DNA of 64,000 nucleotides from Candidatus Omnitrophota bacterium. GTDB taxonomy: Bacteria; Omnitrophota; Gorgyraeia; Gygaellales; Profunditerraquicolaceae. The notes below the pieces were generated by a model, which searched no databases, was not told the DNA's origin, and worked only from the letters and a program-made list of their open reading frames with translations. Of this stretch, positions 11,943 to 63,601 are shown one piece after another (positions within the stretch are counted from its first letter, which is position 1; the number at the start of each line of letters is the position of its first letter). The stretch lies in NCBI GenBank assembly GCA_041650835.1, contig JBAZKL010000004.1:102900-166899 (forward strand). Direction: 5' to 3'. Made by a program: the position numbers and the translations under genes.

Positions 11943-11980
11943 ATTGGGTGAGTTAAAATAAAAAGAACCCGCTATTTTCA
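11943..11980 (+). terminator. Rho-independent terminator (gaacccgc..gcgggttc + T5) after the OLD gene
   Basis: Inverted repeat plus T-run immediately 3' of the stop. A second hairpin lies at 12015-12055. Confidence 0.55.
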
Positions 11981-33314: not shown

Positions 33315-33815
33315 TTAGAGCGCCTCAAACGACTCGCGCATGGCGCTCACCAGCGAATTAACGGACCGGCTGACTTCTTTGGAAAGCTCCTCGCCAAATT
33401 GAAGGGTCTTAGGCTGGATACCGACAATAAGGCAATCGCATTTGACCGACTGTATCAGGTAATCAGCCATAATATTGGCAGGCAGGCGATGCGTGCTGAA
33501 AGTTATACCGCCGATCTCCTCTATCCCGAACATCGAAACTTCACCCGGCGACTTGCCGAAATCAGCGCAATCGATGATGATCAAATGTGACGGCTTGAAC
33601 TTCTTGATCTCTCCCGTAAAATTCTCGGGAGCTGTTCCGCCGGCAAAGAATTTAAATTTAACTCGACCGCGGCATGCTTTAAGCCCTGTCTTTAAATACT
33701 CAGCCACACGCATACCCGCCACATCATCGCTGCAGATATCGGAACCTACCCCCAAAACAGCGATACGCCGGGCGCCGGAAAGTTTATTTTTGAGTTTTTT
33801 CTTGAGGAGCCGCAT
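33315..33815 (-). CDS. hycI: [NiFe] hydrogenase maturation endopeptidase (HycI/HyaD family)
   Basis: GVGSDICSDD, DCAD and STH motifs. Last gene of the hydrogenase operon. Confidence 0.7.
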   Translation of the reverse strand: MRLLKKKLKNKLSGARRIAVLGVGSDICSDDVAGMRVAEYLKTGLKACRGRVKFKFFAGGTAPENFTGEIKKFKPSHLIIIDCADFGKSPGEVSMFGIEEIGGITFSTHRLPANIMADYLIQSVKCDCLIVGIQPKTLQFGEELSKEVSRSVNSLVSAMRESFEAL

Positions 33816-34161
33816 GAAAGGTGACCTTTAACTTATCGCGCTTTAACTGGGCCAGCTCGAAATGCCCCGTGTATTCCAGGGCTTTTTTAGGGCAGGAATC
33901 AACGCATTGCGCGCAGTAAATACATTTTCCCATATCGATCCGGGCTTCAAACTTCTTATCCTCTATCTTATTGATGACGATGGCCCCCGACGGACAGTCG
34001 CGCATGCACATCTTACAGCCGATACAAAGCTCCGCGGTAAAATGCAGCCGCCCCCGGAACCCCTCGGCCATTTCATGCTTTTGATGGGGATAATTAATGG
34101 TAACCGGCTTTCTCACCAGGTACCGCAACGCTTCTCTAAGGATCTTTCCCGGCTTTTTCAT
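33784..34161 (-). CDS. NuoI-like 2x[4Fe-4S] ferredoxin subunit of the membrane-bound hydrogenase
   Basis: CIGCKMCMRDCP and CIYCAQCVDSCP. Confidence 0.8.
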   Translation of the reverse strand: MKKPGKILREALRYLVRKPVTINYPHQKHEMAEGFRGRLHFTAELCIGCKMCMRDCPSGAIVINKIEDKKFEARIDMGKCIYCAQCVDSCPKKALEYTGHFELAQLKRDKLKVTFHAAPQEKTQK

Positions 34162-35099
34162 TTTACAAAAAACTCTTTGACAGCAAGGTTAAATAAAACC
34201 TGCAGGAACGCAACAGGCGCGAAATACTTCCAGCATAAATTGATCATTTGGTCGAGCCGTAAACGCGCGAGGATCGAACGTAAAACAGCCAGTATGCTTA
34301 CTATGAAAAACACTTTAGCGACATACACTATAAAATTTATTCCCGCGGGCAGGTTCAACCCGAACGGCAGGAAGACCGCCGCTAAAAGAGACGCCCCCAC
34401 CACCATTTCCACGCTGATCGCCAGCCTGAACGTCGCCAAAAGGCGCCCGCCGTATTCCGTAAAACATCCCGCCACCACTTCAGTTTCCGCTTCCGGGATA
34501 TCAAAGGGCGTTTTCTCAAGTTTCCCCAGTAACGCGATCAAGGAAATAGCGAATCCCGTCAGGTTACACATCCAATACCAGGGATGCCTGCTGTAAAAAG
34601 AGGCCATCTCACTGAGCGACCAGGTATTTGCCAGGAGCGCGGACGCCAGTATCGCCATAAAAAGCGGGACCTCATAAGCAAAAAGCTGTGTCAGGGAACG
34701 CACCGCCCCGATCATCGCGTAAACCGAGCGCGAATACCAACCGCCGAGGAAATAAGTCAGCGTCGGAATAGTTAAAAGGTATAAAACAACGACCACATCG
34801 CCGTTAAAAGAAAAAAGGGCCTGCGTGTTCCAGAGAGCGATATAAAAGAACGCGGTTATCGACGTTGTCAGCGCGATTATCGGCATCCCCTTAAAAACAG
34901 TCATATCGGCAGCTTCCGGCACAACCTCTTCCTTGCCCAGCAACTTAATGAAATCCGCGACCGGCTGGAACCAGGGCGGGCCCATCCTGTTCTGGATGCG
35001 CGCGTAGATCCTGCGGTCAACAAATTCAACCGCAAAGGCAAAAGCAAACAAAAACAATATACCGGGAAAAACTAAAATTTGAAAAAGTGTTTTTAACAT
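34158..35099 (-). CDS. NuoH/HycD-like integral membrane subunit
   Basis: 313 aa, about 8 TM helices, NuoH-family conserved region ...RIQNRMGPPW... Confidence 0.75.
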   Translation of the reverse strand: MLKTLFQILVFPGILFLFAFAFAVEFVDRRIYARIQNRMGPPWFQPVADFIKLLGKEEVVPEAADMTVFKGMPIIALTTSITAFFYIALWNTQALFSFNGDVVVVLYLLTIPTLTYFLGGWYSRSVYAMIGAVRSLTQLFAYEVPLFMAILASALLANTWSLSEMASFYSRHPWYWMCNLTGFAISLIALLGKLEKTPFDIPEAETEVVAGCFTEYGGRLLATFRLAISVEMVVGASLLAAVFLPFGLNLPAGINFIVYVAKVFFIVSILAVLRSILARLRLDQMINLCWKYFAPVAFLQVLFNLAVKEFFVK

Positions 35100-35100
35100 T

Positions 35101-36336
35101 TTATCTGTTCTTGAGTTTCCGCAACTTCCTGTTTAACCCTGAAAAATCGATCCCCCGCTGTTTATGCCATTCAATACTCTGCACATGCAGCTCTTCCCAA
35201 GGAAGAACCGTTGTCTTGCGGTTGTCCAGATCATGTATCGAGATCATCCGGTCGGTGCAGGAAAAACACGGGTCGATCGCCGCGACCACGATCGGCATAT
35301 CCGCCAGGTAGCGGTCCTCAAGCATGTGGGAGACTGCCTGAATATTGGCTAATGTCGGGGGCCTGACCTTGACGCGGTCGGGCTTATCCGTGCCATTGGC
35401 TTTCACATAATGCACATCTTCCCCGCGCGGGGCTTCATAACGGCTCACTGCTTCTCCCGCGGGGATCTTCCGCGGGGCCTTGACCGTTACCGGCCCGCAA
35501 GGGAGGTTCGCGATTATCTGACGGATGATCTTATAGGACTCCATCAATTCCAAAAGGCGCACGACTGTCCTGCCATAAACATCACAACGGGTATCGGTGA
35601 TGACCTTAAAATCAAGTTCTCCATACGCCGCGTACGGGTCGTCATGCCGGACATCCCGCTTTACGCCTGAGGCGCGCGCCGTCGGTCCGACCGCGGCTAA
35701 TTTTATCGCGTCATCATATTTCAACATACCGACCCCCGACAAACGCTTGATGATCGTGACCTCTTCCTGGGCGACACCGACGTAATATTTAGTCCGTTCC
35801 TCCAAAGTATCCATCGCTTTGAGGATATCTTTTTTCTGCTCCTCTGAAACATCGCGGCGCACGCCGCCTATCGTATTGATCCCGTAATTGACCCTGTTAC
35901 CGGTCAATTCCGCTAAAATATCCATAACGATCTCGCGGTCGCGCCAGGTATACATCAACAACGTATCAAAACCGATCTCATGCCCCGCCACGCCTAACCA
36001 CAATAAATGGCTGTGCACCCGCTCTAATTCAGCGACGAGCGTGCGGATATACAAAGCGCGCTTAGGCACGTCAAGCCCCGCGATCTCTTCGACCGCCTGG
36101 ACAAAACACGTTGAATGCGAATGAGAACAAATACCGCATATTCGCTCGATAAGATACAAGTCCTGGATATAGGTGCGTTCTTCGCAGGCTTTTTCAATGC
36201 CGCGATGATTATATCCTATCTTTATATTGATCGAGGTTATCTTTTCACCCCGCAGGGTGATCATAAAGCTTTCGGGTTCTTTCAATGCCGGATGCTGCGG
36301 CCCCAGCGGTATACGGACATCTCCGGGTTTATACAT
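35101..36336 (-). CDS. Group 4 [NiFe] hydrogenase large subunit (NuoD homologue with intact Ni-Fe ligands)
   Basis: N-terminal RICGICSHSH (RxCGxCxxxH) and C-terminal DPCFSCTDR (DPCxxCxxR), followed by a ~45-aa extension for HycI processing. Start set at MYKPG (36336, AAGGAGA 7 nt upstream). The ORF track extends to 36399. Confidence 0.85.
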   Translation of the reverse strand: MYKPGDVRIPLGPQHPALKEPESFMITLRGEKITSINIKIGYNHRGIEKACEERTYIQDLYLIERICGICSHSHSTCFVQAVEEIAGLDVPKRALYIRTLVAELERVHSHLLWLGVAGHEIGFDTLLMYTWRDREIVMDILAELTGNRVNYGINTIGGVRRDVSEEQKKDILKAMDTLEERTKYYVGVAQEEVTIIKRLSGVGMLKYDDAIKLAAVGPTARASGVKRDVRHDDPYAAYGELDFKVITDTRCDVYGRTVVRLLELMESYKIIRQIIANLPCGPVTVKAPRKIPAGEAVSRYEAPRGEDVHYVKANGTDKPDRVKVRPPTLANIQAVSHMLEDRYLADMPIVVAAIDPCFSCTDRMISIHDLDNRKTTVLPWEELHVQSIEWHKQRGIDFSGLNRKLRKLKNR

Positions 36337-36811
36337 GTGGATTCTCCTTATTTTCCTGAGGCTCCTGCGAATGCCATTCCTTACGCAGCGGGAACTCACC
36401 CTTCGGCCAATTGTCCGGCAGCGGGTAGCGATGGCCCGCAGGCAATCCTTCTACCTGTATCCCTAACAAGTCAACCAGCTCGCGTTCATACGCTTCAGCG
36501 CTGGGAAAACAACTTGTTACCGTTGTGATCAGGGGATCTTCACGGGGGACACGCACGCGCAGCAGGCACATCTGCCCTGTTTCCCTGCAAAGATTGTATA
36601 TCACGCCGAACATGTTATTGCCCTCATCCATACCCGTGATAGCGGAAAGGATGGAAAATTGGCATTTCGTGATCAGATACCGGAAAACTTCAAGGAATTT
36701 ATCCCGGGGAACATCGACAAAGATCCTGCGCTGCCGCTTTACCGTTATGGCAGACGCTAAATACGGGAACTTTTCCCCGAGCTCATTTTTAATACTCTCT
36801 TCTAAAGACAT
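36329..36811 (-). CDS. NuoC-like (30 kDa) subunit
   Basis: 160 aa with conserved ...AEAYERELVDLLGIQ... segment. Confidence 0.7.
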   Translation of the reverse strand: MSLEESIKNELGEKFPYLASAITVKRQRRIFVDVPRDKFLEVFRYLITKCQFSILSAITGMDEGNNMFGVIYNLCRETGQMCLLRVRVPREDPLITTVTSCFPSAEAYERELVDLLGIQVEGLPAGHRYPLPDNWPKGEFPLRKEWHSQEPQENKENPHV

Positions 36812-36828
36812 TTCCTTACCCTTTCGGC

Positions 36829-37305
36829 TTATTTAAGTTCCGGCAGAGCTGTTTTTTTCTTCGGCTCTTCCTTAAGGCTCCCCAGTAATTTTACCACGCC
36901 GTCAATGATCGCTTTGGGGCTTGCCGGGCATCCCGGGATATACGCCGATACCGGTAGAACTGTATCAATTCCGCCCAATACGTTGTAACAGCCGTTAAAC
37001 ACTCCGCCGCTGCAGGCGCAGGTGCCGACCGCGACCACAAATTTAGGTTCCGCCATCTGTTCATAGATCATTACCAGCCGCTCTTCGATCTGCTTGGTGA
37101 CCGGCCCGGAACAGATCAAGACATCGGCATGGCGCGGGGTCCCTTTTAAAACCACACCGAAGCGTTCCAGGTCATAATGAGGCGTCAAAGACGCGATGAT
37201 CTCTATATCGCAGGCGTTGCAAGCCCCGGTATTAAAGTGCAGTATCCAGGGAGATTTAATGCGCGCCCAATTAACGATCCTACTCAACGTTCCCATGCTA
37301 ATCAT
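36829..37305 (-). CDS. [NiFe] hydrogenase small subunit (NuoB homologue)
   Basis: GACNACDIE (hydrogenase-type CxxC rather than the CC of NuoB), GTCACSGG and GCPASP cluster-binding motifs. Confidence 0.8.
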   Translation of the reverse strand: MISMGTLSRIVNWARIKSPWILHFNTGACNACDIEIIASLTPHYDLERFGVVLKGTPRHADVLICSGPVTKQIEERLVMIYEQMAEPKFVVAVGTCACSGGVFNGCYNVLGGIDTVLPVSAYIPGCPASPKAIIDGVVKLLGSLKEEPKKKTALPELK

Positions 37306-37639
37306 CCTTCCTTAAAAGAATAAACAAACCGATGACCGCGCCCAGGATGTAAACGACAGCGATGGCAAAAGTCTCGAGCGTCTCCGTCGGGACCGTCGCG
37401 ATCATCAAAGCGACAACGTGCAGCAGGGTAAAGAAAAAAGCAAACGGGAAAAACTGCGTGTAATCCGGCTGTATCAGGTGACCGGAGAAATCCTCACCGC
37501 AGGAATACGCTTTCTTTGAATCACTACTCCTTTTATCTTTACGGAATGCTACTTTAGAGAACAAAAACGATAAAAACAATATCGCAGAAAAAACGATCAA
37601 AAAAGCTACCGGGGGAGTAAGTAATAAATTCTGGGGCAT
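37298..37639 (-). CDS. NuoA-like small membrane subunit
   Basis: 113 aa, 3 TM. YSCGEDFSG...FFPFAFFFTLLHVVA resembles NuoA's YE(S/C)G...FDVE pattern. Confidence 0.5.
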   Translation of the reverse strand: MPQNLLLTPPVAFLIVFSAILFLSFLFSKVAFRKDKRSSDSKKAYSCGEDFSGHLIQPDYTQFFPFAFFFTLLHVVALMIATVPTETLETFAIAVVYILGAVIGLFILLRKDD

Positions 37640-37644
37640 CGCGG

Positions 37645-37965
37645 CTATCCTTTTAAATTATTTAATTTACGCGTATCGATTGTTTGATTATGCTTAAAAA
37701 TACATAAGATCACGCCACCCGCGACGACCATGATCACGACTTCAACAACGATCAAAGTAATGACCAGCGCCTGCGCTAACGCCATATTGCCGGTTATATA
37801 GCCGACAAGGATGATAAGCAGCGTCACCCCTTTGATCATGATCTCTACCCCGATGATCGCCCTGAGCAGGTTAAACGTTGCCAGGATGCAATATAAACCG
37901 GTAATAAATAAAAGACAGATAAAAATACTGAACGGCCAGAATAACTGGTTGAACATCGGGTTCAT
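37645..37965 (-). CDS. NuoK/MrpC-like membrane subunit
   Basis: 106 aa, 3 TM, with a conserved mid-membrane Glu (GVEIMIKG). Confidence 0.65.
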   Translation of the reverse strand: MNPMFNQLFWPFSIFICLLFITGLYCILATFNLLRAIIGVEIMIKGVTLLIILVGYITGNMALAQALVITLIVVEVVIMVVAGGVILCIFKHNQTIDTRKLNNLKG

Positions 37966-38447
37966 CGGTTCTTCTCCTTAAAAAGGACGACTACGCCAAA
38001 CGCCCCTGCCAGGAGCAGGACGACCTGCCCTAAAAGGTCGAGGTGGCGTAAATTCCATAAAACATTCCTGACATCCTGTTCATAGGCGGCAGGAGATGAC
38101 GTAAGGGAAAGCGACATTTTGACCATACTTAATAAAATACCCGCCAGAATGATTATAAAGGGCAGATACCAGAATTTCCCTAAACGTTCTTTCTGCCGGT
38201 TGAGCAATTGGTCCTGGGTCAGGCGCTGGGTAAAACTAATGGTCGTGACAAAAATAACCGATATCAAACCGGAACAAACCGAGAGCTCGAAAACAGCGGC
38301 TAACGGAGAATTCAGGCGGAACATGATTATGGAAAGGAGCGCGCTCGTCATAGCCAACCCGATGACCGACCTGACCAACCGGGTAGTCATGACCGTCCAT
38401 ACCGCTAAAATAATAAGTATGATAAGTAAACTTAAGTTCAGTGCCAT
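37962..38447 (-). CDS. NuoJ-like (possibly MnhB-type) membrane subunit
   Basis: 161 aa, about 5 TM. AAVFELSVCSGLISVIFV and a C-terminal LLAGAFGVVVLF helix are reminiscent of NuoJ. Confidence 0.45.
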   Translation of the reverse strand: MALNLSLLIILIILAVWTVMTTRLVRSVIGLAMTSALLSIIMFRLNSPLAAVFELSVCSGLISVIFVTTISFTQRLTQDQLLNRQKERLGKFWYLPFIIILAGILLSMVKMSLSLTSSPAAYEQDVRNVLWNLRHLDLLGQVVLLLAGAFGVVVLFKEKNR

Positions 38448-38448
38448 A

Positions 38449-39879
38449 TTATCGTAATAAATCCCCTATAGGTAAAATAAACGAATTTAATATTACCGGG
38501 AACAATAAACCGACCCCGATGATTATCGCCGCCAGCAGCACCTGAGGAACGATCAAGCCCGCGGATACTTCTTTTACCTGTTCTAAACCTTCACGCAGGA
38601 CCCCAAAGAAAACCCTGCGCTGCATGGAAAGGAAATACGCCAGGGTAATAACGCTGGCTAAAAGGGCTCCTGCCGCGTAATAATAATGGCCGGCATTGCA
38701 CAGCGCTATAAAAATGATCAGCTTGCTCCAAAAACCGGACAAAGGCGGGACGCCTGCCGTAGAGAGAAGCGCTATAACCGACGTCGCCCCGGTTACCGGC
38801 ATACGCGCCGACAATCCGCCCATTTTATCCATATCGCTCGTACCCAGTTTTTCCTCAAGGCTTGCGGCATTGATGAACAAAAGAGACTTAAAGATCGCGT
38901 GGTTAAAAAGATGAAAAACCGCGCCCGCCAGGGCAAGCGGGCTGGCTACGCCCAAAGCCAATATAATATAACCGACCTGGCTGATACTTGAATACGCCAG
39001 CATCCGCTTTATATCATTTTGTCCCAGCGCGGCAACCGCGCCGATGATGATAGAGGCGAGCCCCGAAACCATCAATATATTCTGTACCGGCGCGGTCACT
39101 TCGAACACGGAAATAACTAAGCGTATCAAAACATAAACTCCGGATACTTTCGTGACAATGCCGGCCAAAAGCGTAGAGACCGCCGCGGGAGCCGCTGAAT
39201 AGGCGTCCGGCAGCCATCCATGGAACGGCACGAGCCCGGATTTGATAAATAAGCCGCATAAAAACAATCCTACGCCAAGTTTCAACAAAAAGCCGTTCGC
39301 CGGATCGCTAAAGGAGCCGTATATGGCTGAAAATGTCGTCCCGCCGGACACCAAAATAAAAAGAGCGACCGCGGTAAGCATTAAAACGGTCGCTATCGAT
39401 GAAAGAATAATGTATTTAAACGCCCCCTCCAGAGCCAGGAGGTCCTTTCTCTTGGCGATAAGCGTAAAAGACGCGACCGCCGTCACCTCCATAAATACAT
39501 AGAGAGAGAATATATCGGTGGTCATTACCGTGGCGTTCATGCCGATAAGCAGGATCAATACCAGGTTAATGAAATTAAACCTGCTGTTTTCTTCAATGAT
39601 CGTGTATCTGCCGACGATAAGCGCGACAAAACAGACGATGGCGATGGAAAAAAGCATGACAAGCGTTATAGGGTCTAACGCCAGCTTAAAAGCGAAGAAC
39701 GGCCCCAGGGGATCAGGTGTCACGCTCCAGAAAACCAGAGGATGCAGGACAACCAGGATCATTTGATAGAAACACAATATTGCCGCCAGCCAGAATGCCA
39801 GCCGCTTCATAATGGCCCTTAACGGCAGGTTCAATAACGAAACAATGAATAGCGGCAGCAGGATCAGTAATGATAACAC
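38449..39879 (-). CDS. NuoM/MrpD-like antiporter-type subunit
   Basis: 476 aa, about 14 TM, conserved antiporter-module Lys/Glu pattern. Confidence 0.75.
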   Translation of the reverse strand: MLSLLILLPLFIVSLLNLPLRAIMKRLAFWLAAILCFYQMILVVLHPLVFWSVTPDPLGPFFAFKLALDPITLVMLFSIAIVCFVALIVGRYTIIEENSRFNFINLVLILLIGMNATVMTTDIFSLYVFMEVTAVASFTLIAKRKDLLALEGAFKYIILSSIATVLMLTAVALFILVSGGTTFSAIYGSFSDPANGFLLKLGVGLFLCGLFIKSGLVPFHGWLPDAYSAAPAAVSTLLAGIVTKVSGVYVLIRLVISVFEVTAPVQNILMVSGLASIIIGAVAALGQNDIKRMLAYSSISQVGYIILALGVASPLALAGAVFHLFNHAIFKSLLFINAASLEEKLGTSDMDKMGGLSARMPVTGATSVIALLSTAGVPPLSGFWSKLIIFIALCNAGHYYYAAGALLASVITLAYFLSMQRRVFFGVLREGLEQVKEVSAGLIVPQVLLAAIIIGVGLLFPVILNSFILPIGDLLR

Positions 39880-39937
39880 CTTTTAAAACCTCCTCATGAA
39901 CGAAAGAATTCCGGGGAACCCATCATCCCTCCCCGTG

Positions 39938-41767
39938 CTATTTTAATACATAGTATACGACAAGGGCGGAGCCGGCGAGCGCCCAAACAATGTAAAGCGC
40001 GTAATTACCGTTATGCAGGCCGCGTAAAACGCCTGAAGATCCCTGGGTGAGCCAAACGCAGAACCGGTCATAAAAGCTATCGATCATACGGTCGAGCCAC
40101 CACCCGGCCCGGGAGATAACCTGGGCCGCTTTTAATCCGATATCATACGGGTCGAACGCGCGCGCCTCGGCGCGGTCATAAATACCCGATAACACCGGGG
40201 CATGGCGTATATGCTCCGAGGCCTTATGGCCTCCCCCCATTATTTTAGCGCTGGTAACATGATGAAACAAAGCGCCCAACAATACCAGTATAGAAACCAA
40301 AACGATCATTCCATTGCCGGGGAAGCCTGAAAAATCATGGCCTTCAAGCGCGGCGGCACTCAAAACAGGCTGAATAAAATGATGAAGCGGTAACGTATTA
40401 TAAACACCGAAAAGTATACAGCAGCCGGCAATGACTATCATCGGGAACAACATCGCGATACTTGATTCTTTGACATTTTTGTGCTCTTCTTTAAGCTGTC
40501 CCAGGAACGCGGCATGCCCCAATTTCAAGAAAGAAGCCGCGGTAAAAAACGCGCCTAAGATAGCGGCGAGGTAAAACAAGGAGCCACGCTCTATTGCCGC
40601 GTCGAAAACCATTTCTTTTGAAAAGAAACCGTTAAAGGGCGGCACGCCTGAGATCGAGGCGGCAGCCACAAGAAAACAAATAAAGGTAACCGGCATCTTC
40701 CTTCCTAAACCGCCCAATTTTTCCAGGTCGGTCGTCCCAACAGCTTTTTCCACTGAGCCGGCGGTAAGGAATAAACAGCTTTTATACATCGCGTGATTGA
40801 CCATATGGAACAGGCCGCCGACAATCCCGATCGGCAGGCACGTCCCGATCCCGAGTACCATATAACCGACCTGGCTTATCGCGTGATAAGAAAGTAATTT
40901 CTTATAATCTTTCTGCACCAAAGCCATCATGACCGCTAAGATCACGGTAATTGAACCGATACACATCAAAAGCGTACTCAACCATGAATGGGCGCTCAGT
41001 TTAAACATATCCAATGAGATCCGCGCGAGAAAATAAATACCCAGCAATTTCTCAAGAGACGCAGGTAATATCGCCATGAACGGCAAAGGCGCGTCAGCCG
41101 CTGAATCAGGTATCCAGCTGTGGAACGGCATACTCCCTGCTTTGGCAATAGCCCCGACCATCAGCAATACGAACGCGAGGCTTCCTATCGCGCTTGAAGG
41201 GATTAATATATCAGAGATCTTTAATGTCCCGGCGAGATGCCCTGTCAAACCGATACCTGCCATCATGCAAAGGTCTGATATGCCGACAATGATCAATGCT
41301 TTTACCGCGGTTTTATAAGCGCCTTTATTTCCGATCGCGATCATGCCGAAGAGCGTCAAAAGCAACCCTTCCCAGAAAAACAATAAGAGAATAAGGTTAT
41401 CTGCCAACACCGCGCCATTAACAAAAGCAAGAGAAAGCAACAGGTACGCGTAAAACTGGTTCAACTTTTCCTTATTACGCATAAAACTCATTGAATATAA
41501 AGAGATTAAGAAGCCAAAGAACGCGGCAGCCAGCAGGATAAATCCGCTAAAATGATACAATCTCAGAGAAAACTCCATGCCAAAGCCTGCCCAGGGCAAA
41601 GAAACAACAATATCCTGTTTAAACAATAAAACAGCTAACAAAAAGTTAAAAGCGGTCGCGGCAAAAGTAATAAGCTCCTTGACTCCCGGTGCTCTCCTCA
41701 AGGCAAGTACGAGTAAACCGCAAAATAAAGGTATATATATAGGTAAGAATATCATATTATCGGTCAT
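39938..41767 (-). CDS. NuoL/MrpA-like antiporter-type subunit
   Basis: 609 aa with a C-terminal extension, as in NuoL. Confidence 0.75.
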   Translation of the reverse strand: MTDNMIFLPIYIPLFCGLLVLALRRAPGVKELITFAATAFNFLLAVLLFKQDIVVSLPWAGFGMEFSLRLYHFSGFILLAAAFFGFLISLYSMSFMRNKEKLNQFYAYLLLSLAFVNGAVLADNLILLLFFWEGLLLTLFGMIAIGNKGAYKTAVKALIIVGISDLCMMAGIGLTGHLAGTLKISDILIPSSAIGSLAFVLLMVGAIAKAGSMPFHSWIPDSAADAPLPFMAILPASLEKLLGIYFLARISLDMFKLSAHSWLSTLLMCIGSITVILAVMMALVQKDYKKLLSYHAISQVGYMVLGIGTCLPIGIVGGLFHMVNHAMYKSCLFLTAGSVEKAVGTTDLEKLGGLGRKMPVTFICFLVAAASISGVPPFNGFFSKEMVFDAAIERGSLFYLAAILGAFFTAASFLKLGHAAFLGQLKEEHKNVKESSIAMLFPMIVIAGCCILFGVYNTLPLHHFIQPVLSAAALEGHDFSGFPGNGMIVLVSILVLLGALFHHVTSAKIMGGGHKASEHIRHAPVLSGIYDRAEARAFDPYDIGLKAAQVISRAGWWLDRMIDSFYDRFCVWLTQGSSGVLRGLHNGNYALYIVWALAGSALVVYYVLK

Positions 41768-43254
41768 TTCTGCATCACCAGCATCTGTTGGACAACATTT
41801 GCTACAACCTGATTAGGATAATAAATAAAGATCCCGCCGGCTAAAGACAGGGCCGCGAGCAAGCCGACACAAAAAACCATCAGCGGATCCCCTTCTTTTA
41901 CCTCTTTGGACTTAGCTTCTCCTAAGAAAACCAGAGTAAATACTCTCAAAAGATAAAGTATCGTCAAGATGGCTCCGATCAAAAATATGCCCGCGAGAAA
42001 AAGATGCCCGCCTTGTAAAGCTCCCGCCATAACCATATATTTACTAAAAAAACCTCCAAAAGGAGGAATACCCATGACTGAGAACGCGCAAAATAAAAAT
42101 GATGCCGCGGTTACCGGCATCGTTTTTGCCAAGCCGCCCAATTTAGTAATGTCTTTGATCTTTGTATTTTGCTCTACTATCCCCGCGCATAAGAACAACC
42201 CCGCTTTGGCAAGGCCGTGCATCAAAATATATAACAAACCTCCGGCAATACCTACTTCATTGCCGATCGCCAGCCCCAGGAAGATAAAAGCAATCTGGCT
42301 GATCGTCGAATACGCGATGATCCTCTTAAGATCAGTGTCAACTAACGCCGCGGCCGCGGAAACAAGAGCGCTGATCCCCGCGATAAAAGGGACCACGCTG
42401 TGCCAATAATCAAGCAGCGGGATAGTTACCACAAACAAACGGGCAAAGGCGTAAACGCCGATCTTAACCAGTACTGCCGCGTGCAGCAGCGCGGTCACCG
42501 TTGATGGAGCGACACCGGCGTCAGGAAGCCAGGTATGAAAGGGTAACGTCGCTGACTTGGAGAATATCCCTGCCAGGATCAATCCAACGGCAAGCACAGA
42601 AACAGGTTCGGCCTTAAAACGTTCATGGATCACCGCGAGATCGAACGACCCTGCCTGTTGATAGATCAAGACAAAACCTATCAACATCATTAAAGCGCCG
42701 AATACCGTAATTAAAAACGATTTATTCGCCCGGATGACATCGGTTTTCGCCCTGAAGAACCCTATGAGCCGCCAACTCGCCAGAGCGGTCATTTCCCAGA
42801 AAACATAAAGGAAGATCAAATTACCCGCGTATATCAGCCCCATCATCGAGCCAAGGAACAAAACTACCATCATATAATACTCATTTTGGTTCTCGTAATG
42901 GCTGATATACCCGAATGAATACATGACAATGATAGCGCTGATCAAGGAAGATACGACCGCCATAAAAACAGCCAGCGCGTCGGCGCAAAAAACAAAGTTA
43001 AAGCCTAAAGGAAGGATACGGGTAGAGATAAGGGTTTTCCCGCTTAAGACAAAAGGAGACAGGGAAAGAGAAATAGCCAGAGGAAAGAGGACAAGCAACA
43101 ACGCCAGTATATTTCTCACCGGTTTAGAGAACTTCCCGGCCAACGGTAATATAAAAGCCCCTATTAAAGGGGCTAGAACTGCTGATAGTATCATGATATT
43201 AATACGCCGCTTAAAAAGCCGCTTAAAATAAAAAAGTCTTCTAGCATATTCCAC
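41764..43254 (-). CDS. NuoN/MrpD-like antiporter-type subunit (first gene of the operon)
   Basis: 496 aa. The real start may be the internal MILSAVLAPL at 43194. There is a 4-bp overlap with the next gene. Confidence 0.75.
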   Translation of the reverse strand: MEYARRLFYFKRLFKRRINIMILSAVLAPLIGAFILPLAGKFSKPVRNILALLLVLFPLAISLSLSPFVLSGKTLISTRILPLGFNFVFCADALAVFMAVVSSLISAIIVMYSFGYISHYENQNEYYMMVVLFLGSMMGLIYAGNLIFLYVFWEMTALASWRLIGFFRAKTDVIRANKSFLITVFGALMMLIGFVLIYQQAGSFDLAVIHERFKAEPVSVLAVGLILAGIFSKSATLPFHTWLPDAGVAPSTVTALLHAAVLVKIGVYAFARLFVVTIPLLDYWHSVVPFIAGISALVSAAAALVDTDLKRIIAYSTISQIAFIFLGLAIGNEVGIAGGLLYILMHGLAKAGLFLCAGIVEQNTKIKDITKLGGLAKTMPVTAASFLFCAFSVMGIPPFGGFFSKYMVMAGALQGGHLFLAGIFLIGAILTILYLLRVFTLVFLGEAKSKEVKEGDPLMVFCVGLLAALSLAGGIFIYYPNQVVANVVQQMLVMQK

Positions 43255-43403
43255 CAGAAGACACCCTTGTCTATAGCTTAGTTCTATGTTAGTTAAACTT
43301 GTTTACCATGGAATCTATCCAATAAATGTAACATACACTCATGGATTTGTCAAATAAATTTAAGGTGAGCGGGCTAACTCCAACTTACTTATAAATAAAA
43401 TAC

Positions 43404-43476
43404 GCGCCCAACAGGAATCGAACCTGTAACAACCAGTTCCGTAGACTGGTGCTCTATCCAATTGAGCTATGGGCGC
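43404..43476 (-). tRNA. tRNA-Arg (anticodon ACG)
   Basis: Reverse complement is GCGCCCATAGCTCAATTGGATAGAGCACCAGTCTACGGAACTGG..GTTCGATTCCTGTTGGGCGC. Cloverleaf checked by hand. 73 nt. Confidence 0.85.
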
Positions 43477-43798: not shown

Positions 43799-44395
43799 TT
43801 ATTTGGGATCATTAAACTTGAACGTCTTAACCATATGATCAAATGCCTTACTGAACCTGTCAAATCCCTGCTCCGTGTTTTCATACCTTAAAGAATATGC
43901 CTTACCCGGTTTCATAAAAATAATTATTTTCTCTTTAACCGGTATCAGTTTTGCATCCACGCTATAAATCTTATCCATCGCCTTATACGACAAGAGGATT
44001 TCCCGGGCATCAAGGCCCATAACATCAGCTTTAGACCTTGACAACAATTTTGCATCTTTAAATTTCAGTCTTTTCTTCACCAGATCATCTGTAAGCGCCT
44101 CAAGAGTTTCTAATACATCTATCTTAGAGAGGTCTTGCGCGGTTATGGCTATTTTAGGCTTATAGTTTTCACCCTTACTATCTTCAAAGAAAACTACACT
44201 CGCGTATCCTTTTTGAAGATCCTTGTTTTCGCGGTAAAGCCATTGAGAAATATAATCTATACCAATGTTTAATTCCTGATTTTTACCGATATATTGCTCG
44301 TAGCGCAGACTCCCGCCGGTACAGCCATAATTATTCACCATGCACATCACCCCTATCAGCAGAAATAAATAAACATTGTTTATCGTAGGTTTCAT
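43799..44395 (-). CDS. Lipoprotein, function unknown
   Basis: Signal peptide plus lipobox (..NNYGC). Confidence 0.45.
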   Translation of the reverse strand: MKPTINNVYLFLLIGVMCMVNNYGCTGGSLRYEQYIGKNQELNIGIDYISQWLYRENKDLQKGYASVVFFEDSKGENYKPKIAITAQDLSKIDVLETLEALTDDLVKKRLKFKDAKLLSRSKADVMGLDAREILLSYKAMDKIYSVDAKLIPVKEKIIIFMKPGKAYSLRYENTEQGFDRFSKAFDHMVKTFKFNDPK

Positions 44396-44404: not shown

Positions 44405-45601
44405 TTAATAAGACGGATAACCGGCATACATCACGGCCACAACGTCATGTAAAGAAGAGCCTCCCTGCTCATAAAGGCTCAATACATAATCAAGTTCGTC
44501 ATTGGTCTGGGTGCCTTTTTTTTCTTGCCAAAATTGAGCCTCCCGGGTAAAAGCATTGTTTTCCTGATCAATGCTGTCACCGAGCACCTGCTCACCCGTA
44601 ACGGGATCTGTGTACCAGCTTAAATCCGATTCAGCAACTCCTAAACGCGCTGTAGTATCAGCGACCCACGCTGCCGTATTATGAGAATAATCCGCATGTA
44701 AAGCTTCGTGAACGACAACTGACGCGATTGCTTCTGCCGACCAGGTACTACCTATAGAAGAATCAATAAATATAGCATTATTTTCGTGTGGATCATCAGG
44801 ATAAAAATCAGACCACCAAGATGGAAACCATTGACCTAAAGCTCCGCTGCTTAAATCCCCGTAATAAACATGAATGTCTTCAGCTTGTATCAAAGCATAC
44901 AACTCGCCTGCAATAGCAGAATCGCTCATACAAGCAAGAACATCGCTTAAGTCAATCAACTCTGCCGCACTACCTCCGCCGTCACCGCCCCCGCCGCCGC
45001 CATCATCACCGGCACCACCGCCGCCGCCACCTCCGCCACCGCCACCGCCTCCGCCGGAACCACCTCCCCCGCCGGAACTCTCGCCGCTGGAAGCGCTCCC
45101 CCCTCCACTGACACCACCGCCGCCGCCAGTGATAGTTGTACCGCCCTCATCTTGCCCGCTGCTGCCGCCTCCACCGCCGCCGCTACCTCCGATGTACGGC
45201 CCCGCGGGCAACACTGAACCCCCGCCATCCATCACAATAACGGTTGAGTCGGTATTAACGCTCTCTGAATCGATATCACGGCCGATACGCTTGGCTATTA
45301 CGACGAAATCATCATCGGTAACATTGACGACCCGGTACTCATAATATTTAGGGCGGATATTTAATTCCAACAGCTTATTGATCTCTTCGGTATTATCAGC
45401 CGCGACAAAAGAACCAGACTCGATTTTATGAGCCTTCTCCGCGTCGCGGATCGCCTTAATGCTCACGATCGCATCGGTTTTAATGGATTTGTTAATAACA
45501 TGCAGATAGGAGAAAAATCCTCCGGCAGCTAAAACCGCAATGATAACAACCGCAATTGACAACTCGATAAGATTAAAACCTTTTTTATTATGCACCGTCA
45601 C
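44405..45601 (-). CDS. Prepilin-type N-terminal protein with an ~80-residue poly-Gly linker and a C-terminal HExxH (zincin-like) domain
   Basis: KKGFNLIELSIAVVIIAVLAA is a class III signal with G|F and Glu+5. A long GGS/GGG tract follows. VVVHEALHADYSH is present. Confidence 0.6.
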   Translation of the reverse strand: MTVHNKKGFNLIELSIAVVIIAVLAAGGFFSYLHVINKSIKTDAIVSIKAIRDAEKAHKIESGSFVAADNTEEINKLLELNIRPKYYEYRVVNVTDDDFVVIAKRIGRDIDSESVNTDSTVIVMDGGGSVLPAGPYIGGSGGGGGGSSGQDEGGTTITGGGGGVSGGGSASSGESSGGGGGSGGGGGGGGGGGGGGAGDDGGGGGGDGGGSAAELIDLSDVLACMSDSAIAGELYALIQAEDIHVYYGDLSSGALGQWFPSWWSDFYPDDPHENNAIFIDSSIGSTWSAEAIASVVVHEALHADYSHNTAAWVADTTARLGVAESDLSWYTDPVTGEQVLGDSIDQENNAFTREAQFWQEKKGTQTNDELDYVLSLYEQGGSSLHDVVAVMYAGYPSY

Positions 45602-46424
45602 CCTCTTTTTGTTTAGGCTTTAACAGCTTCTCTAAATTCTCAAGCGCTCCCCTTGCGTCCGCGTCGGCGGGATCAAGCAACAAGACTTTTTTCCATTGCT
45701 CCTGCGCCTGCGCGAGGTCTCCTTTTTTCATATATACGACTCCTAAATTATAAAACGCCCGGGCATTCTTCGGCTCAAAAGCAATCACTTTTTCATATTC
45801 AGCCATTGCCTGATCATAAGCATTCTCCCTTAAATACAGATCTGCCAGGTTATTATGAGCTTCGGCCATACTATAATTCTCTTTTATCGCCTGGTTATAT
45901 AAATCCTTTGCTTTGGTAAAATCCTCTTTTTGAGCGTATATACTGGCTAAATTATTATAAACTTTAGCATCAGCCAATTTATGCTCGATAAGGAATTGAT
46001 AATCATCGATCGCTTTCTCCAATTCCCCTGTTCGTTGGTTTAAAAGCGCGCGTAAATAATGGGCCTGCCGGTTGCCGCTGTAATTCCGCAGCAACAAATC
46101 ACACAATTCCCCGGCTTTACGGTAATCTTTCTGTTTTACCTGCTTCTCAATATCCTGTAAGGCCGTTTTATAATCGAAGGACGCTTCAGGACTGTCATTA
46201 CTGAAGAGGCGGCCCTTCTTTATTGAGGCGCCCCCTTTCTTATCAACTATCTGCTTGATCTCCAGGAACTCCCGGCTGATCGAACTTATTTCTCCTTCAA
46301 GAGCCAATTCAGCTTTCGCGGTGAGCCTTTCCGCCTGAGCGATGAAAGGATACCCCCCCACCGCCAGCAACAACAATACACTGATATTGAACCTGCAAAA
46401 ATTCATTTTCATATTTACACGCAA
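45588..46424 (-). CDS. Secreted TPR-repeat protein
   Basis: Signal peptide plus about 5 TPR units (..AHNNLADLYL.., ..AFYNLGVVYM..). Confidence 0.7.
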   Translation of the reverse strand: MRVNMKMNFCRFNISVLLLLAVGGYPFIAQAERLTAKAELALEGEISSISREFLEIKQIVDKKGGASIKKGRLFSNDSPEASFDYKTALQDIEKQVKQKDYRKAGELCDLLLRNYSGNRQAHYLRALLNQRTGELEKAIDDYQFLIEHKLADAKVYNNLASIYAQKEDFTKAKDLYNQAIKENYSMAEAHNNLADLYLRENAYDQAMAEYEKVIAFEPKNARAFYNLGVVYMKKGDLAQAQEQWKKVLLLDPADADARGALENLEKLLKPKQKEGDGA

Positions 46425-56967: not shown

Positions 56968-57348
56968 TTACGGTGACATCCTTTTCTTCCGGCTCTTCTT
57001 TACTTCGGGCTTAAGATCGATGGATTCCACAAAGAATTCCTTATCCATAGCGATAGTAACATCCGCGCTGCCGCAAGACGGGCAACCAAAGGTTTTTCTT
57101 ACGATCATTGCCTTACGATCACAGCTATTACATACGAGAGGGAGCTTTAACGCCAGGACATTAAGCGATGCCCCTTTAAACTTTGTCCCAATAGATAATT
57201 CTTTAAAAGCCGCTTTCAAGTTCCCCGCGGAAACATGGCTCAATGGGCTTAACCGGACATTGACCGTAACCTGGGCCAAAGGCGCTTTCTTGTTCGACGC
57301 TTCTTCCAGCGCCGTGAATATTTGCTGAATGAACCTTGTTTCGTGCAT
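56968..57348 (-). CDS. hypA: Hydrogenase nickel-insertion protein HypA (full length, with zinc site)
   Basis: MHE N-terminus and CNSC...CPSC zinc ribbon. 126 aa. Confidence 0.8.
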   Translation of the reverse strand: MHETRFIQQIFTALEEASNKKAPLAQVTVNVRLSPLSHVSAGNLKAAFKELSIGTKFKGASLNVLALKLPLVCNSCDRKAMIVRKTFGCPSCGSADVTIAMDKEFFVESIDLKPEVKKSRKKRMSP

Positions 57349-57382
57349 AAGAGCCTCTCGTTAATTTAACTGAAATTTATAG

Positions 57383-57416
57383 TTATCCACAACCGTAGCC
57401 CGTAGTTTATACCCGG
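57383..57416. repeat. 35-bp conserved intergenic element, copy 3 (ttatccacaaccgtagcccgtagtttatacccgg)
   Basis: Contains the exact sequence TTATCCACA. Lies 35 bp upstream of the hypA start. Confidence 0.6.
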
Positions 57417-57417
57417 C

Positions 57418-58386
57418 TTATTCCCTCGCGTGCCTTGCGAAAAAATCCCAGATCACCTCATTGGCGTCAATATCCCTGCTGGTTTTCCCGACGAGCCTTT
57501 CGCCGAGATATTGATGGCCATTCGGCCAGGTATGCCCGCCTCCTTCAACAGCATAAAGGATCACTTCTGCCGAATCCTTACCGTTGCCATATGCTTCTTT
57601 TCTTATCCGCGTGCCGTCATACGGGTCACGGTCAGGCGCCTCTGTGATAACCGCCGTCGGGGAACACTTATTATGCTCTACCCAAAACCTGATAGTCTCG
57701 GCTGTCGGCAGTACTTTTCCCAACTTCTTCATCCCGAAAGGGCCGGTAATATCCTCACCCGCCCAGGGCATCAAAGGATCATTGACGTTATTGATAGCTA
57801 ATACCGAGACCGGCATTGACGGCAAACAGGCGGGGCATAAATTTTGAGGGATATTGCCGGTAACAGGAGCGATCGCGGTTATCTTTTCAGATAACTGGCA
57901 AGCAAGGCGGTAAGACATCATTGCCCCGTTTGACATTCCCGTGGCATAAACCCGTTTTGGGTCGGCATTAAATTCTTCAATTAACCGGCCGATCAATGCC
58001 GCGATGAACCCGACATCGTCTATATCCTCCCGATGCGCCCGGTATCCTGTTTCCCGGGGGCGCCTGCCGTCATTCCAATTCTTTTCTATCCCGTCGGGAT
58101 AGGCGACGATAAAGCCGAATTTATCCGCCAGCGCGTTAAACCCGCCGCGGGTAAGTTTGATCATATGCCTGCCGCTGCCCCCACCTCCGTGTAACGCGAT
58201 CACAAGCGGCATTGATTTAGTTTTATCATAGGAAGGCGGGATATAAATAAGATAGGTGCGTTTAAGCCCCGCGAAAATTATTGCTCCGGGAAACGTCTTA
58301 GCAGAAGCACTCACGGCAAAAGCGCTCACAAAAAAACAGGTTAAAACGCATAAAACAAGGGCCGCTCTTTTTTTGGCCTTCCCCAT
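57418..58386 (-). CDS. Secreted alpha/beta-hydrolase esterase (PHB-depolymerase/LpqC-like family)
   Basis: Signal peptide, LHGGGGSG oxyanion region, GMSNGA nucleophile elbow. Confidence 0.55.
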   Translation of the reverse strand: MGKAKKRAALVLCVLTCFFVSAFAVSASAKTFPGAIIFAGLKRTYLIYIPPSYDKTKSMPLVIALHGGGGSGRHMIKLTRGGFNALADKFGFIVAYPDGIEKNWNDGRRPRETGYRAHREDIDDVGFIAALIGRLIEEFNADPKRVYATGMSNGAMMSYRLACQLSEKITAIAPVTGNIPQNLCPACLPSMPVSVLAINNVNDPLMPWAGEDITGPFGMKKLGKVLPTAETIRFWVEHNKCSPTAVITEAPDRDPYDGTRIRKEAYGNGKDSAEVILYAVEGGGHTWPNGHQYLGERLVGKTSRDIDANEVIWDFFARHARE

Positions 58387-58432
58387 TGATCATCTCCGCA
58401 GTTTAGGTGGCACGCAAAAAACAACCTTCAGA

Positions 58433-59089
58433 TTATCTTTTTTTTGACCGCCCCAGGCGATACGCGGCGTAAACCGCGCACACGCTTATGAGCATAATAA
58501 ATCCCCAGGCATAGGTTAGCGGGAATCGAGCGGCAACGGCCCCGTATATACCGTTGAGCCCGAATAATATAAAAATAACCGCTGATATCCATTTTATTGT
58601 CTTCTCAGGAATATGCTTTCTCATCACAATACCGGCCACGACCCCGAAAGCATCCGCTATCACCATGCCCAGGGTAGTCCCCATCAGCACATAAAGCATA
58701 TTCTGATATTTAACCGCGAGGCTGATTGTAGCGAGCTGCGTCTTATCCCCCATTTCAGCCAGGAAGAACGCGATACCGACGGTTACCACAGGGCCAAAGC
58801 GGCTTTCCTTTTTATCTTCTCCTTCAAGATTGTCCCCGCGGATAGTCCATAAACCAAAAATAACAAATGAAAAAGCCGCAATAAATGAAATAATATCTAA
58901 AGGTATAACAACTGTTAAGAAATGGCCTACGGCTACCGCAAGAGAGTGATTGAGAAGCGTGGCAAGAAAAACCGCGAGAAGAACTTTTCCGGGGTTGTAT
59001 CGGGCAGCAAAAGCCATTGCCAGAAGTTGGGTCTTATCTCCCATTTCCGCTAATACGACAAAGATCAATGATGCCCAAAACGCCGCCAT
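58433..59089 (-). CDS. GDT1/TMEM165 (UPF0016) family cation (Ca2+/Mn2+):H+ transporter
   Basis: Two E-x-G-D-K-T motifs (AEMGDKTQL twice), 6 TM. 218 aa. Confidence 0.75.
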   Translation of the reverse strand: MAAFWASLIFVVLAEMGDKTQLLAMAFAARYNPGKVLLAVFLATLLNHSLAVAVGHFLTVVIPLDIISFIAAFSFVIFGLWTIRGDNLEGEDKKESRFGPVVTVGIAFFLAEMGDKTQLATISLAVKYQNMLYVLMGTTLGMVIADAFGVVAGIVMRKHIPEKTIKWISAVIFILFGLNGIYGAVAARFPLTYAWGFIMLISVCAVYAAYRLGRSKKR

Positions 59090-59214
59090 ACTTTATCACC
59101 TTGCTTCATTACTTAACCACTCAACCGTATTTACTCTAACCACGCCCCTAAAACTAATGATAATAACACATTAAGGCATAAAAGAATGCCGCTACAAGCG
59201 CTTCCCCGATGAGA

Positions 59215-59484
59215 TCAACTCTTGCCGGCTTGCGCGCTATATTTAATGAACATAGCGAAAGCCACCACAAGGATCAAAAACGTTACGCCATTAGCCAGAA
59301 TTATCACAAAGTTTTTCAGATGGATGCCGTATACCAACCAAAGAAAAACCCCCACCATAAACTGAAGAATAGCAAGCAAACTAAGGTCTTTGACGGACTT
59401 AGTGCGGTAGATCTTAATTACCTGCGGCAGGAAGCCGAACATCGTCAAGAATGCCGCTGAAAAACCAACAATTTCCCAAGCCAT
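59215..59484 (-). CDS. SemiSWEET (PQ-loop) sugar transporter
   Basis: 89 aa with 3 TM and the PQ motif FLPQVIKIYRTKS. Start set at MAWEIV (GAGAGGAAA RBS upstream). The ORF-track start is at 59538. Confidence 0.6.
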   Translation of the reverse strand: MAWEIVGFSAAFLTMFGFLPQVIKIYRTKSVKDLSLLAILQFMVGVFLWLVYGIHLKNFVIILANGVTFLILVVAFAMFIKYSAQAGKS

Positions 59485-59784
59485 GGATTTCCTCTCAATA
59501 GTTCGTATACCCGGGATCATTCTTTTATTCAAACCCAAGCAACGCGCCCTTATAGATACTATTGCTATTCGTTATTAAGCGATCGTGTTCCTTCTTTTAA
59601 ACACTTCAGCCTATTTTACCCGCAGAACCTGTCAAACGCAATATAATCTTCTCATAAAAAAAGGCGGCTATCACGCGATATGTGACGCCGCCTTCTTCCT
59701 TATTTCTACCTTTTGACTTTCTTTGATATTTACCTGCCGGCAGGGCCTTTAAACTTTAAGCTTCAATTTCTCTGCCTGCCTTAA

Positions 59785-60036: not shown

Positions 60037-60064
60037 AACAGCCTCCTTTTGGATACGGTTGTTT

Positions 60065-62383: not shown

Positions 62384-62402
62384 ATTTTGACTCCTTTTTC
62401 TG

Positions 62403-63566: not shown

Positions 63567-63601
63567 AGAATAGTTTTCTCCTTTTTACATCATTACCGCG
63601 G

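Follow-up and report, generated by a model that had tools for sequence, protein, structure and literature searches.

Type IV pilins that carry an additional C-terminal module are known as modular pilins, in which a class III signal and a pilin module precede the extra module, as in PilB (vWA module) and PilC (lectin module) of Streptococcus sanguinis, and a survey of InterPro has listed 264 such architectures, some of which carry predicted peptidases of the S74 and M26 families (Raynaud et al. 2021, PMC8179133). The minigluzincins, represented by selecase (MJ1213), projannalysin and proabylysin, are in turn regarded as the minimal scaffold of the M48 and M56 catalytic domains, with similarity to WLM and SprT (bioRxiv 10.1101/2020.07.07.192476), and the known members are free-standing, archaeal proteins. 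Here, we analyze a minus-strand gene at 44405–45601 of a 64-kb window, by which we mean the whole stretch of 64,000 nucleotides taken from contig JBAZKL010000004.1 of a Candidatus Omnitrophota bacterium (assembly GCA_041650835.1), together with the partner gene that follows it. The gene encodes a type IVa pilin module, a long Gly/Ser linker and a zincin-like domain in a single chain, and on balance we consider it probable that the product is a modular type IVa pilin presenting a leashed gluzincin-like metallopeptidase, which an exported cognate partner inhibits, protects against or chaperones in the periplasm of the producer.

The protein shares with the published modular pilins the order of class III signal, pilin and C-terminal module, and as a pilin module followed by an extra module that is not specific to pili it falls within their definition (PMC8179133). 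It differs from them in its cargo, an unannotated zincin family that is invisible to an InterPro-based survey, in its position as an orphan outside any pilus operon, and in two properties of its family, namely an obligate downstream partner and a Flp/TadE-like sister subfamily. A preliminary description of this DNA considered such fusions to be poorly described; this is too broad, as modular pilins including the S74 and M26 forms had already been surveyed in 2021, but the zincin cargo itself is new. The pilin-zincin family is undescribed, occurs mainly in ultra-small, possibly predatory Omnitrophota, and is unmentioned in the Omnitrophota and Velamenicoccus papers examined. The new elements are thus the zincin family as pilin cargo, the conserved Gly/Ser leash of 50–120 residues, the obligate PsbP-like partner and the swapping of N-terminal modules, assembled from recognizable parts: the modular pilin is a known concept, and the minigluzincin scaffold a known fold.

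Gene architecture and the Gly/Ser linker

The features of the gene, all on the minus strand except the last, are as follows:
44405–45601, minus strand: pilin/linker/zincin coding sequence, from the open reading frame list and the sequence; stop codon at 44405–44407
45578–45595, minus strand: class III (prepilin) leader MHNKKG, predicted cut after Gly with Phe at +1, from TIGR02532 and Pfam N_methyl
45230–45577, minus strand: type IVa pilin-like module, mature F1 to about D116, from profile A7 against the PDB and from Glu5
44969–45229, minus strand: Gly/Ser-rich flexible linker, residues 125–211, from composition, imperfect repeat and GC peak
44408–44968, minus strand: 187-residue HExxH domain of minigluzincin-like type, distantly related to Pfam DUF6782, from AlphaFold, Foldseek and profile searches
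44696–44710, minus strand: HEALH motif with His298, Glu299 and His302, codons checked, invariant in 64/64 sequences
44561–44563, minus strand: Glu347, predicted third zinc ligand, invariant in 64/64 sequences, at a helix start in the model
44874–45344, plus strand: antisense poly-Pro open reading frame, artefactual, the complement of the GGN tract

The reading frame comprises 398 residues from the GTG at 45601 and 396 residues from the GTG at 45595 (a 1191-nt gene). The latter is probably the true start, and hence MHNKKG the leader, because a Shine-Dalgarno sequence (AGAGGG) lies 5 nt upstream and a 396-residue protein is called in two other assemblies. Residue numbers used here refer to the 398-residue frame, and adding 211 to a position within the C-terminal domain gives its number in that frame. 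The product has four parts: the class III prepilin signal (MHNKKG|FNLIE), the type IVa pilin module (9–124), the 87-residue linker (125–211) and the 187-residue domain with the HEALH motif (212–398). The preliminary description had proposed a frame with a prepilin-like start, a Gly run and an HExxH end, and this is what the sequence at 44405–45601 contains. It had likewise taken the plus-strand poly-Pro frame for an antisense artefact, and we agree: this frame is nested wholly inside the minus-strand gene and was rejected as a gene in its own right, and the minus-strand frame is real because homologues match it on both sides of the Gly tract.

The linker is made up of 53 Gly and 12 Ser among its 87 residues, slightly more than the roughly 80 first reported, and would span ~30 nm in contour length when fully extended. 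All four Gly codons are used (GGC 23, GGT 16, GGG 7 and GGA 7), Tandem Repeats Finder describes the underlying DNA as an imperfect repeat with 70–89% matches, and the local GC fraction across it is 0.67–0.73 vs 0.46 for the window. As a low-complexity, GC-rich tract, it is of the type that assemblers mishandle, and the contig of the nearest homologue (L001; such handles denote the related loci) ends inside its own Gly-rich stretch, in a frame reading GGGSGGTEDDGG..., which indicates that assemblers struggle with tracts of this type and that one is also present in the homologue. Taken on their own, these points would fit a collapsed or chimeric repeat that fuses two unrelated genes, an assembly failure that the preliminary description had itself named as fatal to its proposal.

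We nevertheless find such an artefact exceedingly improbable. The repeat is imperfect, with mixed codons, and the sequence is identical in three assemblies made with at least two assemblers: the same DNA occurs in ENA ERZ27247363 k141_1862102 (184 kb, MEGAHIT) and in Logan SRR8542065_170248, with 100% identity over the whole 1191-nt gene plus 10.6 kb and 5.9 kb of context in these two assemblies. Both contigs were found via the exact sequence of the partner protein and may share reads with the window, so that this identity rules out an assembler-specific collapse rather than every artefact. The comparative evidence is the stronger argument: a Gly/Ser linker stands directly before the zincin domain in 60 of 62 multidomain relatives (median 76 residues, range 48–123), including two paralogues of Candidatus Velamenicoccus archaeovorus LiM, whose chromosome is closed, such that the in-frame order of pilin, linker and zincin recurs in ~60 independent representatives.

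We note that several Velamenicoccus-type paralogues (L013:8846-10276 and 10875-12098, L009:8936-10396, L011:163-1392 and L015:8549-10240) carry an extra insert of ~100 residues between linker and zincin (...NDGFxSLxW...YxIYR...YYYRIDAVY...), which has the appearance of an FN3/Ig-like domain by eye and is without Pfam assignment. The same paralogues carry the variant motif HEGTHAWW.

The pilin module and the zincin-like domain

The N-terminus matches the TIGR02532 model of prepilin-type cleavage and methylation at 28.4 bits for the full protein and 31.8 bits for its 70-residue N-terminal fragment (cutoff 16.3), and Pfam N_methyl at 21.0 and 24.5 bits, respectively (cutoff 21.2). The leader ends in KKG and is followed by FNLIELSIAVVIIAVLAAGGFF, with Glu5 in the hydrophobic α-1N helix, and then by ~115 pilin-like residues. 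Prepilin peptidases cut after Gly. The prepilin signal proposed earlier therefore stands, with TIGR02532 passed by the full protein and N_methyl by the fragment, but its cleavage site moves by one residue, to KKG|FNLIE instead of KKGF|NLIE.

The pilin module comprises α-1N with Glu5, a full α-1 helix and a small strand-rich head (YYEYRVVNV / DFVVIAKRI / TVIVMD). A profile of 25 N-terminal modules of the family (A7), run against PDB sequences, matches Myxococcus PilA (E = 1.1e-9), Pseudomonas aeruginosa PilA (1.4e-8), Neisseria PilE (1.7e-8) and GspG (3.5e-5) in alignments that span profile positions 1–58, i.e., the whole α-1 helix, while Thermus PilA is the sole PDB match to reach positions 1–98. 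The suggestion that a pilin-like module follows the signal is thus borne out by an α-1 helix profile that matches solved type IVa pilins at E = 1e-9. Across 60 family N-termini, Glu5 is at least 90% conserved, and ~40–42 match pilin or pseudopilin models. In type IV pili (T4P), Glu5 is required for filament assembly and polymerization and not for cleavage, so its conservation argues that the pilin helix is more than a membrane anchor. A second N-terminal class, to which the window protein does not belong, has the motif G|xxxxE[YF], reminiscent of Flp/TadE, and accounts for ~17 of the 60 N-termini; two of its members match Flp_Fap and one matches TadF, all weakly. At L015:8549-8950, ~5 tandem copies of a ~19-residue unit (PAPKHRAGRIPPLDKRGFT) precede the pilin signal in the same frame. 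They form a leader-like segment ending in RGFT, and may be either a real feature or an assembly artefact.

The C-terminal domain contains VVVHEALHADYSH, and at 187 residues with the HEALH motif it agrees with the HExxH domain of ~190 residues originally noted. In a word-indexed search of 5.8 billion proteins, it found one homologue of 48% identity by sequence and 4 matches by profile. Exhaustive HMMER searching with a two-sequence profile retrieved 106 cluster representatives (64 at E < 1e-10), mostly of 360–450 residues with the zincin domain at the C-terminus, and mainly from Candidatus Omnitrophota. An AlphaFold model built from a 39-sequence alignment reached a pLDDT of 97.5 and a pTM of 0.93; a first model, based on two aligned sequences, was of mediocre quality (pLDDT 71) and was set aside. 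In domain numbering, the model consists of two helices, a sheet of 3–4 strands, a helix at 78–96 that contains HEALH, a β-hairpin, and helices at 133–150, 157–168 and 172–180.

The closest structures in the PDB are the minigluzincins, with Foldseek probabilities of 0.90–0.99 and TM scores of 0.46–0.55 over targets of ~105–112 residues. For selecase, the probability is 0.99 and the TM score 0.52–0.55 over a ~108-residue target (rmsd 3.3–3.5 Å, ~90 columns). Every credible Foldseek match is of gluzincin type, namely selecase, projannalysin, an M48-like protein (3c37), SPRTN, Pz-peptidase (M3), ZMPSTE24 and BlaR1. The family HMM points in the same direction, with selecase (E = 3.2e-4) as the only significant PDB match and projannalysin at 0.19, over the β-strand, the 'tIyIn' strand and the HExxH helix, as do the subthreshold Pfam matches of family members, which are all to zincins: SprT-like in 16/39, M48 in 12/39, and further DUF6782, M35, M91, eCIS core, YgjP-like and M56. 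The core held in common with the minigluzincins is a β-strand, the 'tIyIn' edge strand, the HExxH helix and then a helix with a conserved Glu. Identity to them is only ~20% over ~90 residues, however, and the present domain is larger (~187 residues), with two extra N-terminal and three C-terminal helices, in addition to being bacterial, exported, tethered to a pilin and partnered.

Only five positions are invariant in all 64 superfamily sequences: His87, Glu88, His91, Glu136 and Trp147 in domain numbering. Glu136 (Glu347) starts the helix at 133–150, within an (S/T)xDQE(Y/F)xxF motif. As judged from alignment and model, the spacing HExxH-x44-E, in which the Glu opens the following long helix, conforms to the gluzincin pattern (the "glutamate helix"), with His298 and His302 as the two predicted zinc ligands, Glu299 as the predicted catalytic base, and Glu347 as the candidate third ligand for which the preliminary description had suggested a search. 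Asp304 (HExxHxD; Asp93 of the domain) was also considered as the third ligand and rejected, being replaced by W, Q or K in 13/64 sequences.

These results bear on whether the domain might instead be a hydroxylase of the α-ketoglutarate/HExxH type or a noncatalytic binding module. The window sequence passes no curated peptidase model, and there is a match to TIGR04267 (mod_HExxH) over 28 residues around the motif (E = 0.038–0.12), which is weak, at 12–14 bits against a cutoff of 40. Fold and profile searches, by comparison, return zincin peptidases only, the invariance of the HExxH Glu and of the downstream Glu in 64/64 sequences argues against a decayed site, and an Fe/α-ketoglutarate enzyme would seem implausible outside the cytoplasm. 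We thus hold a nonpeptidase role to be very unlikely. The zinc-metallopeptidase-like identity put forward in the preliminary description is supported by the confident model and by best structure and profile matches that all fall among minigluzincin, M48 and SprT zincins, and the nonzincin fold that would have undermined it is not what the Foldseek comparison of the model indicates.

The free C-terminus may also matter. In the window protein it reads ...YPSY (44408–44419); an aromatic residue is the very last in 64 of 99 family representatives, and 47 finish with [LYI]P.[YF]-COOH, mostly LPEY. Such conservation suggests a function, for instance in autoinhibition, with the tail placed in the active-site cleft, or in docking of the partner. 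Autoinhibition by a C-terminal tail occurs in minigluzincin zymogens.

Partner gene, family distribution and genomic context

The gene downstream of the pilin-zincin gene is:
43799–44395, minus strand: partner gene following the zincin gene, encoding a PsbP/DcrB/LpqN-like exported protein or lipoprotein of 198 residues

It starts 9 nt past the zincin stop codon behind a separate ribosome-binding site (GGAG), and its product carries a signal peptide together with the lipobox-like sequence ...NNYGC|TGG. When the partner and zincin HMMs were run over all stop-to-stop open reading frames of 21 related loci and the window, a partner-family gene for a protein of ~195 residues was found directly 3' of every HExxH gene with downstream DNA; the sole HExxH gene lacking a partner match, in L012, is cut by the contig end. 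L009, L013 (Velamenicoccus) and L021 each carry two pairs in tandem, and a second partner copy is present in L001. The partner itself matches PsbP at 22.2 bits (threshold 23.5), and family members also give subthreshold matches to PsbP_2, DcrB and LpqN, which suggests a resemblance to the PsbP/DcrB fold class; the partner profile has no match among PDB sequences. Pairwise identities of zincins and partners are correlated (Mantel r = 0.63, 0/2000 permutations as high), and this reflects co-inheritance of the cassette, not necessarily physical interaction. In L013 (Candidatus V. archaeovorus LiM, NZ_CP019384), two pilin-linker-zincin genes, at roughly 1.631–1.634 Mb of CP019384, stand in tandem at 8846–12840 of the locus, one with a GFTLLE-type and one with a G-QGVLEF-type N-terminus, each followed by its own partner; these two partners are 89% identical, suggesting recent duplication or gene conversion.

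A scan for promoters and terminators in the window performed at chance level (3 terminator-like sites vs 3.5 expected), and at this level there is no clear terminator between the zincin and partner genes and none convincing after the partner. A tRNA gene (43403–43476, minus strand) lies directly downstream of the two-gene module, and a σ70-like promoter match (11/12) at 43663–43635 falls between the two, in a scan that is at chance level overall.

The pilin-linked form was found by genome scan in Candidatus Omnitrophota metagenome-assembled genomes, including V. archaeovorus and some labelled Planctomycetes, and the closest relatives of both window genes likewise point to an Omnitrophota origin. 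Outside this group, Chloroflexota/Anaerolineae carry the same zincin core (HEGTHVQW...DSIDQEYHAF) either behind a helical N-terminus of ~170 residues or nearly alone, without signal peptide, pilin or poly-Gly, and match the family profile at E ~1e-22 (hmmsearch). Examples are L016:9359-10342, L017:1840-2883, L018:705-1706, L019:9167-10168 and L021:6335-7411. Their N-terminus is conserved (…AIHALDxLKGALxRFxGEA…WLxERxxHWxxEVRRRQEEV…C…C…), has no Pfam match and might be a secretion or trafficking domain. The partners there are predicted to be cytoplasmic, with acidic C-terminal tails and no signal peptide, whereas those of Omnitrophota have signal peptides for export, so that the export signals of the partner track those of the zincin and the partner would reside where the zincin first appears. 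Two Chloroflexota members also score 29.7 and 21.7 bits with DUF6782, a "putative metallopeptidase" model (cutoff 27 bits) for which a literature search returned no paper. Among Omnitrophota-type domains, 3/39 match it weakly, the window domain does not match even at E ≤ 1, and the matches cover only model positions 22–102 of 241. At the level of sequence, DUF6782 is thus the closest named family, without itself being matched by the window protein.

The invariant pairing and the exchange of N-termini recall polymorphic toxin cassettes, which likewise combine an enzymatic C-terminus, swappable N-termini, an immediate small cognate gene acting in the same compartment, and tandem pairs. The locus could accordingly be read as an effector-immunity cassette, in which a zincin toxin directed at competitor or prey cells rides on exchangeable carrier modules (a T4a pilin, a Flp/TadE-like N-terminus or, in Chloroflexota, a helical secretion-type domain) and the PsbP-like gene confers immunity. 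One C-terminal domain on three unrelated N-terminal modules, an invariant downstream partner in the same compartment as the zincin, co-inheritance of the pairs, the tandem arrangements and the extra partner copy in L001, and the presence of two pairs in Velamenicoccus, which has been reported as predatory, are all in line with such a cassette. On the other hand, zincin and partner diverge at similar, moderate rates and are not hypervariable, neither matches a recognized toxin or immunity family in Pfam, the Chloroflexota N-termini gave no match to a known trafficking domain of polymorphic toxins, and no orphan immunity arrays were seen. Adjacency and co-inheritance are, moreover, equally expected of an enzyme with a chaperone or regulator. 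We know of no polymorphic-toxin route in which a pilin is recognized as the trafficking module. We therefore regard an effector-immunity role, which overlaps with the display of a leashed peptidase by a modular pilin, as possible but doubtful.

Upstream, the gene is preceded by:
45588–46424, minus strand: periplasmic TPR protein with a signal peptide and at least 4 TPR units, from TPR Pfam matches

The stop of this gene overlaps the start of the pilin gene, and the two are probably co-transcribed in this genome. We excluded it from the module, since L002, L004 and L013 have other genes at this position and the TPR gene is absent from the related loci. TPR and M48 peptidase domains are combined in BepA (bioRxiv 10.1101/2020.07.07.192476), and a BepA-like link between this neighbour and the zincin is speculative.

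This neighbourhood brings up a reading in which the protein never enters a filament and is instead a periplasmic protease anchored in the inner membrane, serving envelope quality control or signalling as M48 and M56 enzymes do. The class III signal and α-1N would then serve solely to export and anchor the protein, a use seen in many orphan prepilin-type proteins from the PVC group; the leash would reach across the periplasm, and the PsbP-like lipoprotein would be an adaptor or regulator. Such a role would be consistent with an orphan gene that has neither pilus machinery nor minor pilins as neighbours, with the M48/M56 envelope proteases among the fold relatives (BepA-like, ZMPSTE24 and BlaR1; bioRxiv 10.1101/2020.07.07.192476), with Chloroflexota pairs that have no pilin at all, and with the translationally coupled TPR gene, although this neighbour is not conserved. 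A mere anchor would, however, need neither the family-wide Glu5 nor the complete T4a-type α-1 helix, and the different filament-type N-terminus (G-xxxx-E[YF]) of the second subfamily suggests selection for recognition by filament systems. We consider an anchored protease rather unlikely on these grounds.

The remainder of the window contains several unrelated features. A cluster resembling group-4-type membrane-bound [NiFe] hydrogenases and Mrp antiporters occupies 33315–43254 and 56968–63982 (both minus strand), with a NuoH-like protein, large and small subunits, a 4Fe-4S protein, three Proton_antipo_M proteins and a HycI protease, accompanied by the maturation genes hypA, hypD, hypE and hypF. 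Other neighbours include a hybrid histidine kinase and a tRNA. A TIR_2-domain protein (8398–9375, minus strand) and an AAA_15/AAA_21 (OLD/AbiEii-like) ATPase (10173–11879, plus strand) flank a tRNA gene at 9878–9950 and could form an anti-phage defence islet. At 2858–5104 (minus strand), a 748-residue protein joins an N-terminal glycosyltransferase family 25 domain to a C-terminal glycoside hydrolase family 16 domain, an unusual fusion.

Proposed filament display of a leashed peptidase

Taking these comparisons into account, we infer filament display and proteolysis by a modular pilin, along the following steps, whereas the domain architecture, the family, the zincin-like fold, the invariant HExxH...E signature and the obligate gene pair are supported directly by the analysis. 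The protein would be inserted by Sec/SRP, a prepilin peptidase encoded elsewhere in the genome would remove the six-residue leader (MHNKKG|F), and the processed protein would stay in the inner membrane through its α-1N helix. The pilin module with Glu5 could then be taken up by a type IVa pilus (T4aP) or a pseudopilus resembling that of the type II secretion system (T2SS), most likely as a low-abundance or tip subunit. The Gly/Ser linker of ~87 residues would serve as a flexible leash with a reach of up to ~30 nm, bearing a compact gluzincin-type peptidase with zinc bound by His298, His302 and Glu347 and with Glu299 as the general base. The co-transcribed, exported partner would share a compartment with the peptidase and act on it, most likely as a cognate inhibitor or immunity protein or as a chaperone, such that the peptidase would be harmless in the periplasm of the producer until it is outside. 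Given the reported pilus-dependent, host-attached lifestyle of Omnitrophota, its likely job would be contact-range proteolysis of another cell's surface or of an extracellular protein. T4aP genes are present in nearly all Omnitrophota and Tad genes in many, and V. archaeovorus expresses both systems (PMC10066038).

Several observations weigh against display of a leashed peptidase on a filament. The pilin-zincin gene is an orphan pilin-like gene: the 64-kb window contains no T4P, T2SS or Tad gene, no prepilin peptidase and no second pilin, and the related loci have no such machinery, prepilin peptidase or other pilin-like gene within 10 kb. The homology of the pilin head is weak (Pfam Pilin_GH, E = 0.2), and the linkers of published modular pilins are short (PMC8179133), compared to ~50–120 Gly/Ser residues here. 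In addition, the pilin-free pairs of zincin and partner in Chloroflexota indicate that the core function needs no filament. On the side of the enzyme, a single-sequence search with the C-terminal domain alone gave no match in Pfam or NCBIfam (E ≤ 1) or among PDB sequences, no curated peptidase model from Pfam or NCBIfam is passed by the window domain, and the Foldseek matches in the PDB are distant, the best at E = 0.05 and none lower.

A further-reaching version of the same idea is that the type IV and Tad filaments of Omnitrophota deliver a tethered zincin toxin, with the partner protecting the envelope of the producer, as an effector-immunity system that has gone unrecognized. Here, the pilin module would replace the trafficking domain of type V, VI or VII secretion systems (T5SS, T6SS and T7SS), and, through its leash, the protease could sweep across the surface of attached prey or host cells. 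Unlike polymorphic toxins, the family matches no known toxin, immunity or trafficking family and diverges only moderately, and we consider this proposal tentative and unlikely in its present form.

Omnitrophota are abundant, uncultured and ultra-small, and their predatory or parasitic lifestyle has been inferred largely from pilus genes and giant proteins. Effector candidates are scarce among them, and the module described here is a compact, conserved and experimentally tractable gene pair that links a filament subunit to a probable protease. The fold, the invariant residues and the obligate partner also provide a first context for an uncharacterized zincin superfamily that touches DUF6782, and the family illustrates that modular pilins of this kind escape surveys that rely on annotated domains. 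If display on a filament is true, this would be a clear natural case in which a very long, designed-looking linker leashes an enzyme to a type IV filament, and it would offer a candidate explanation of how these bacteria attack at contact range or remodel surfaces.

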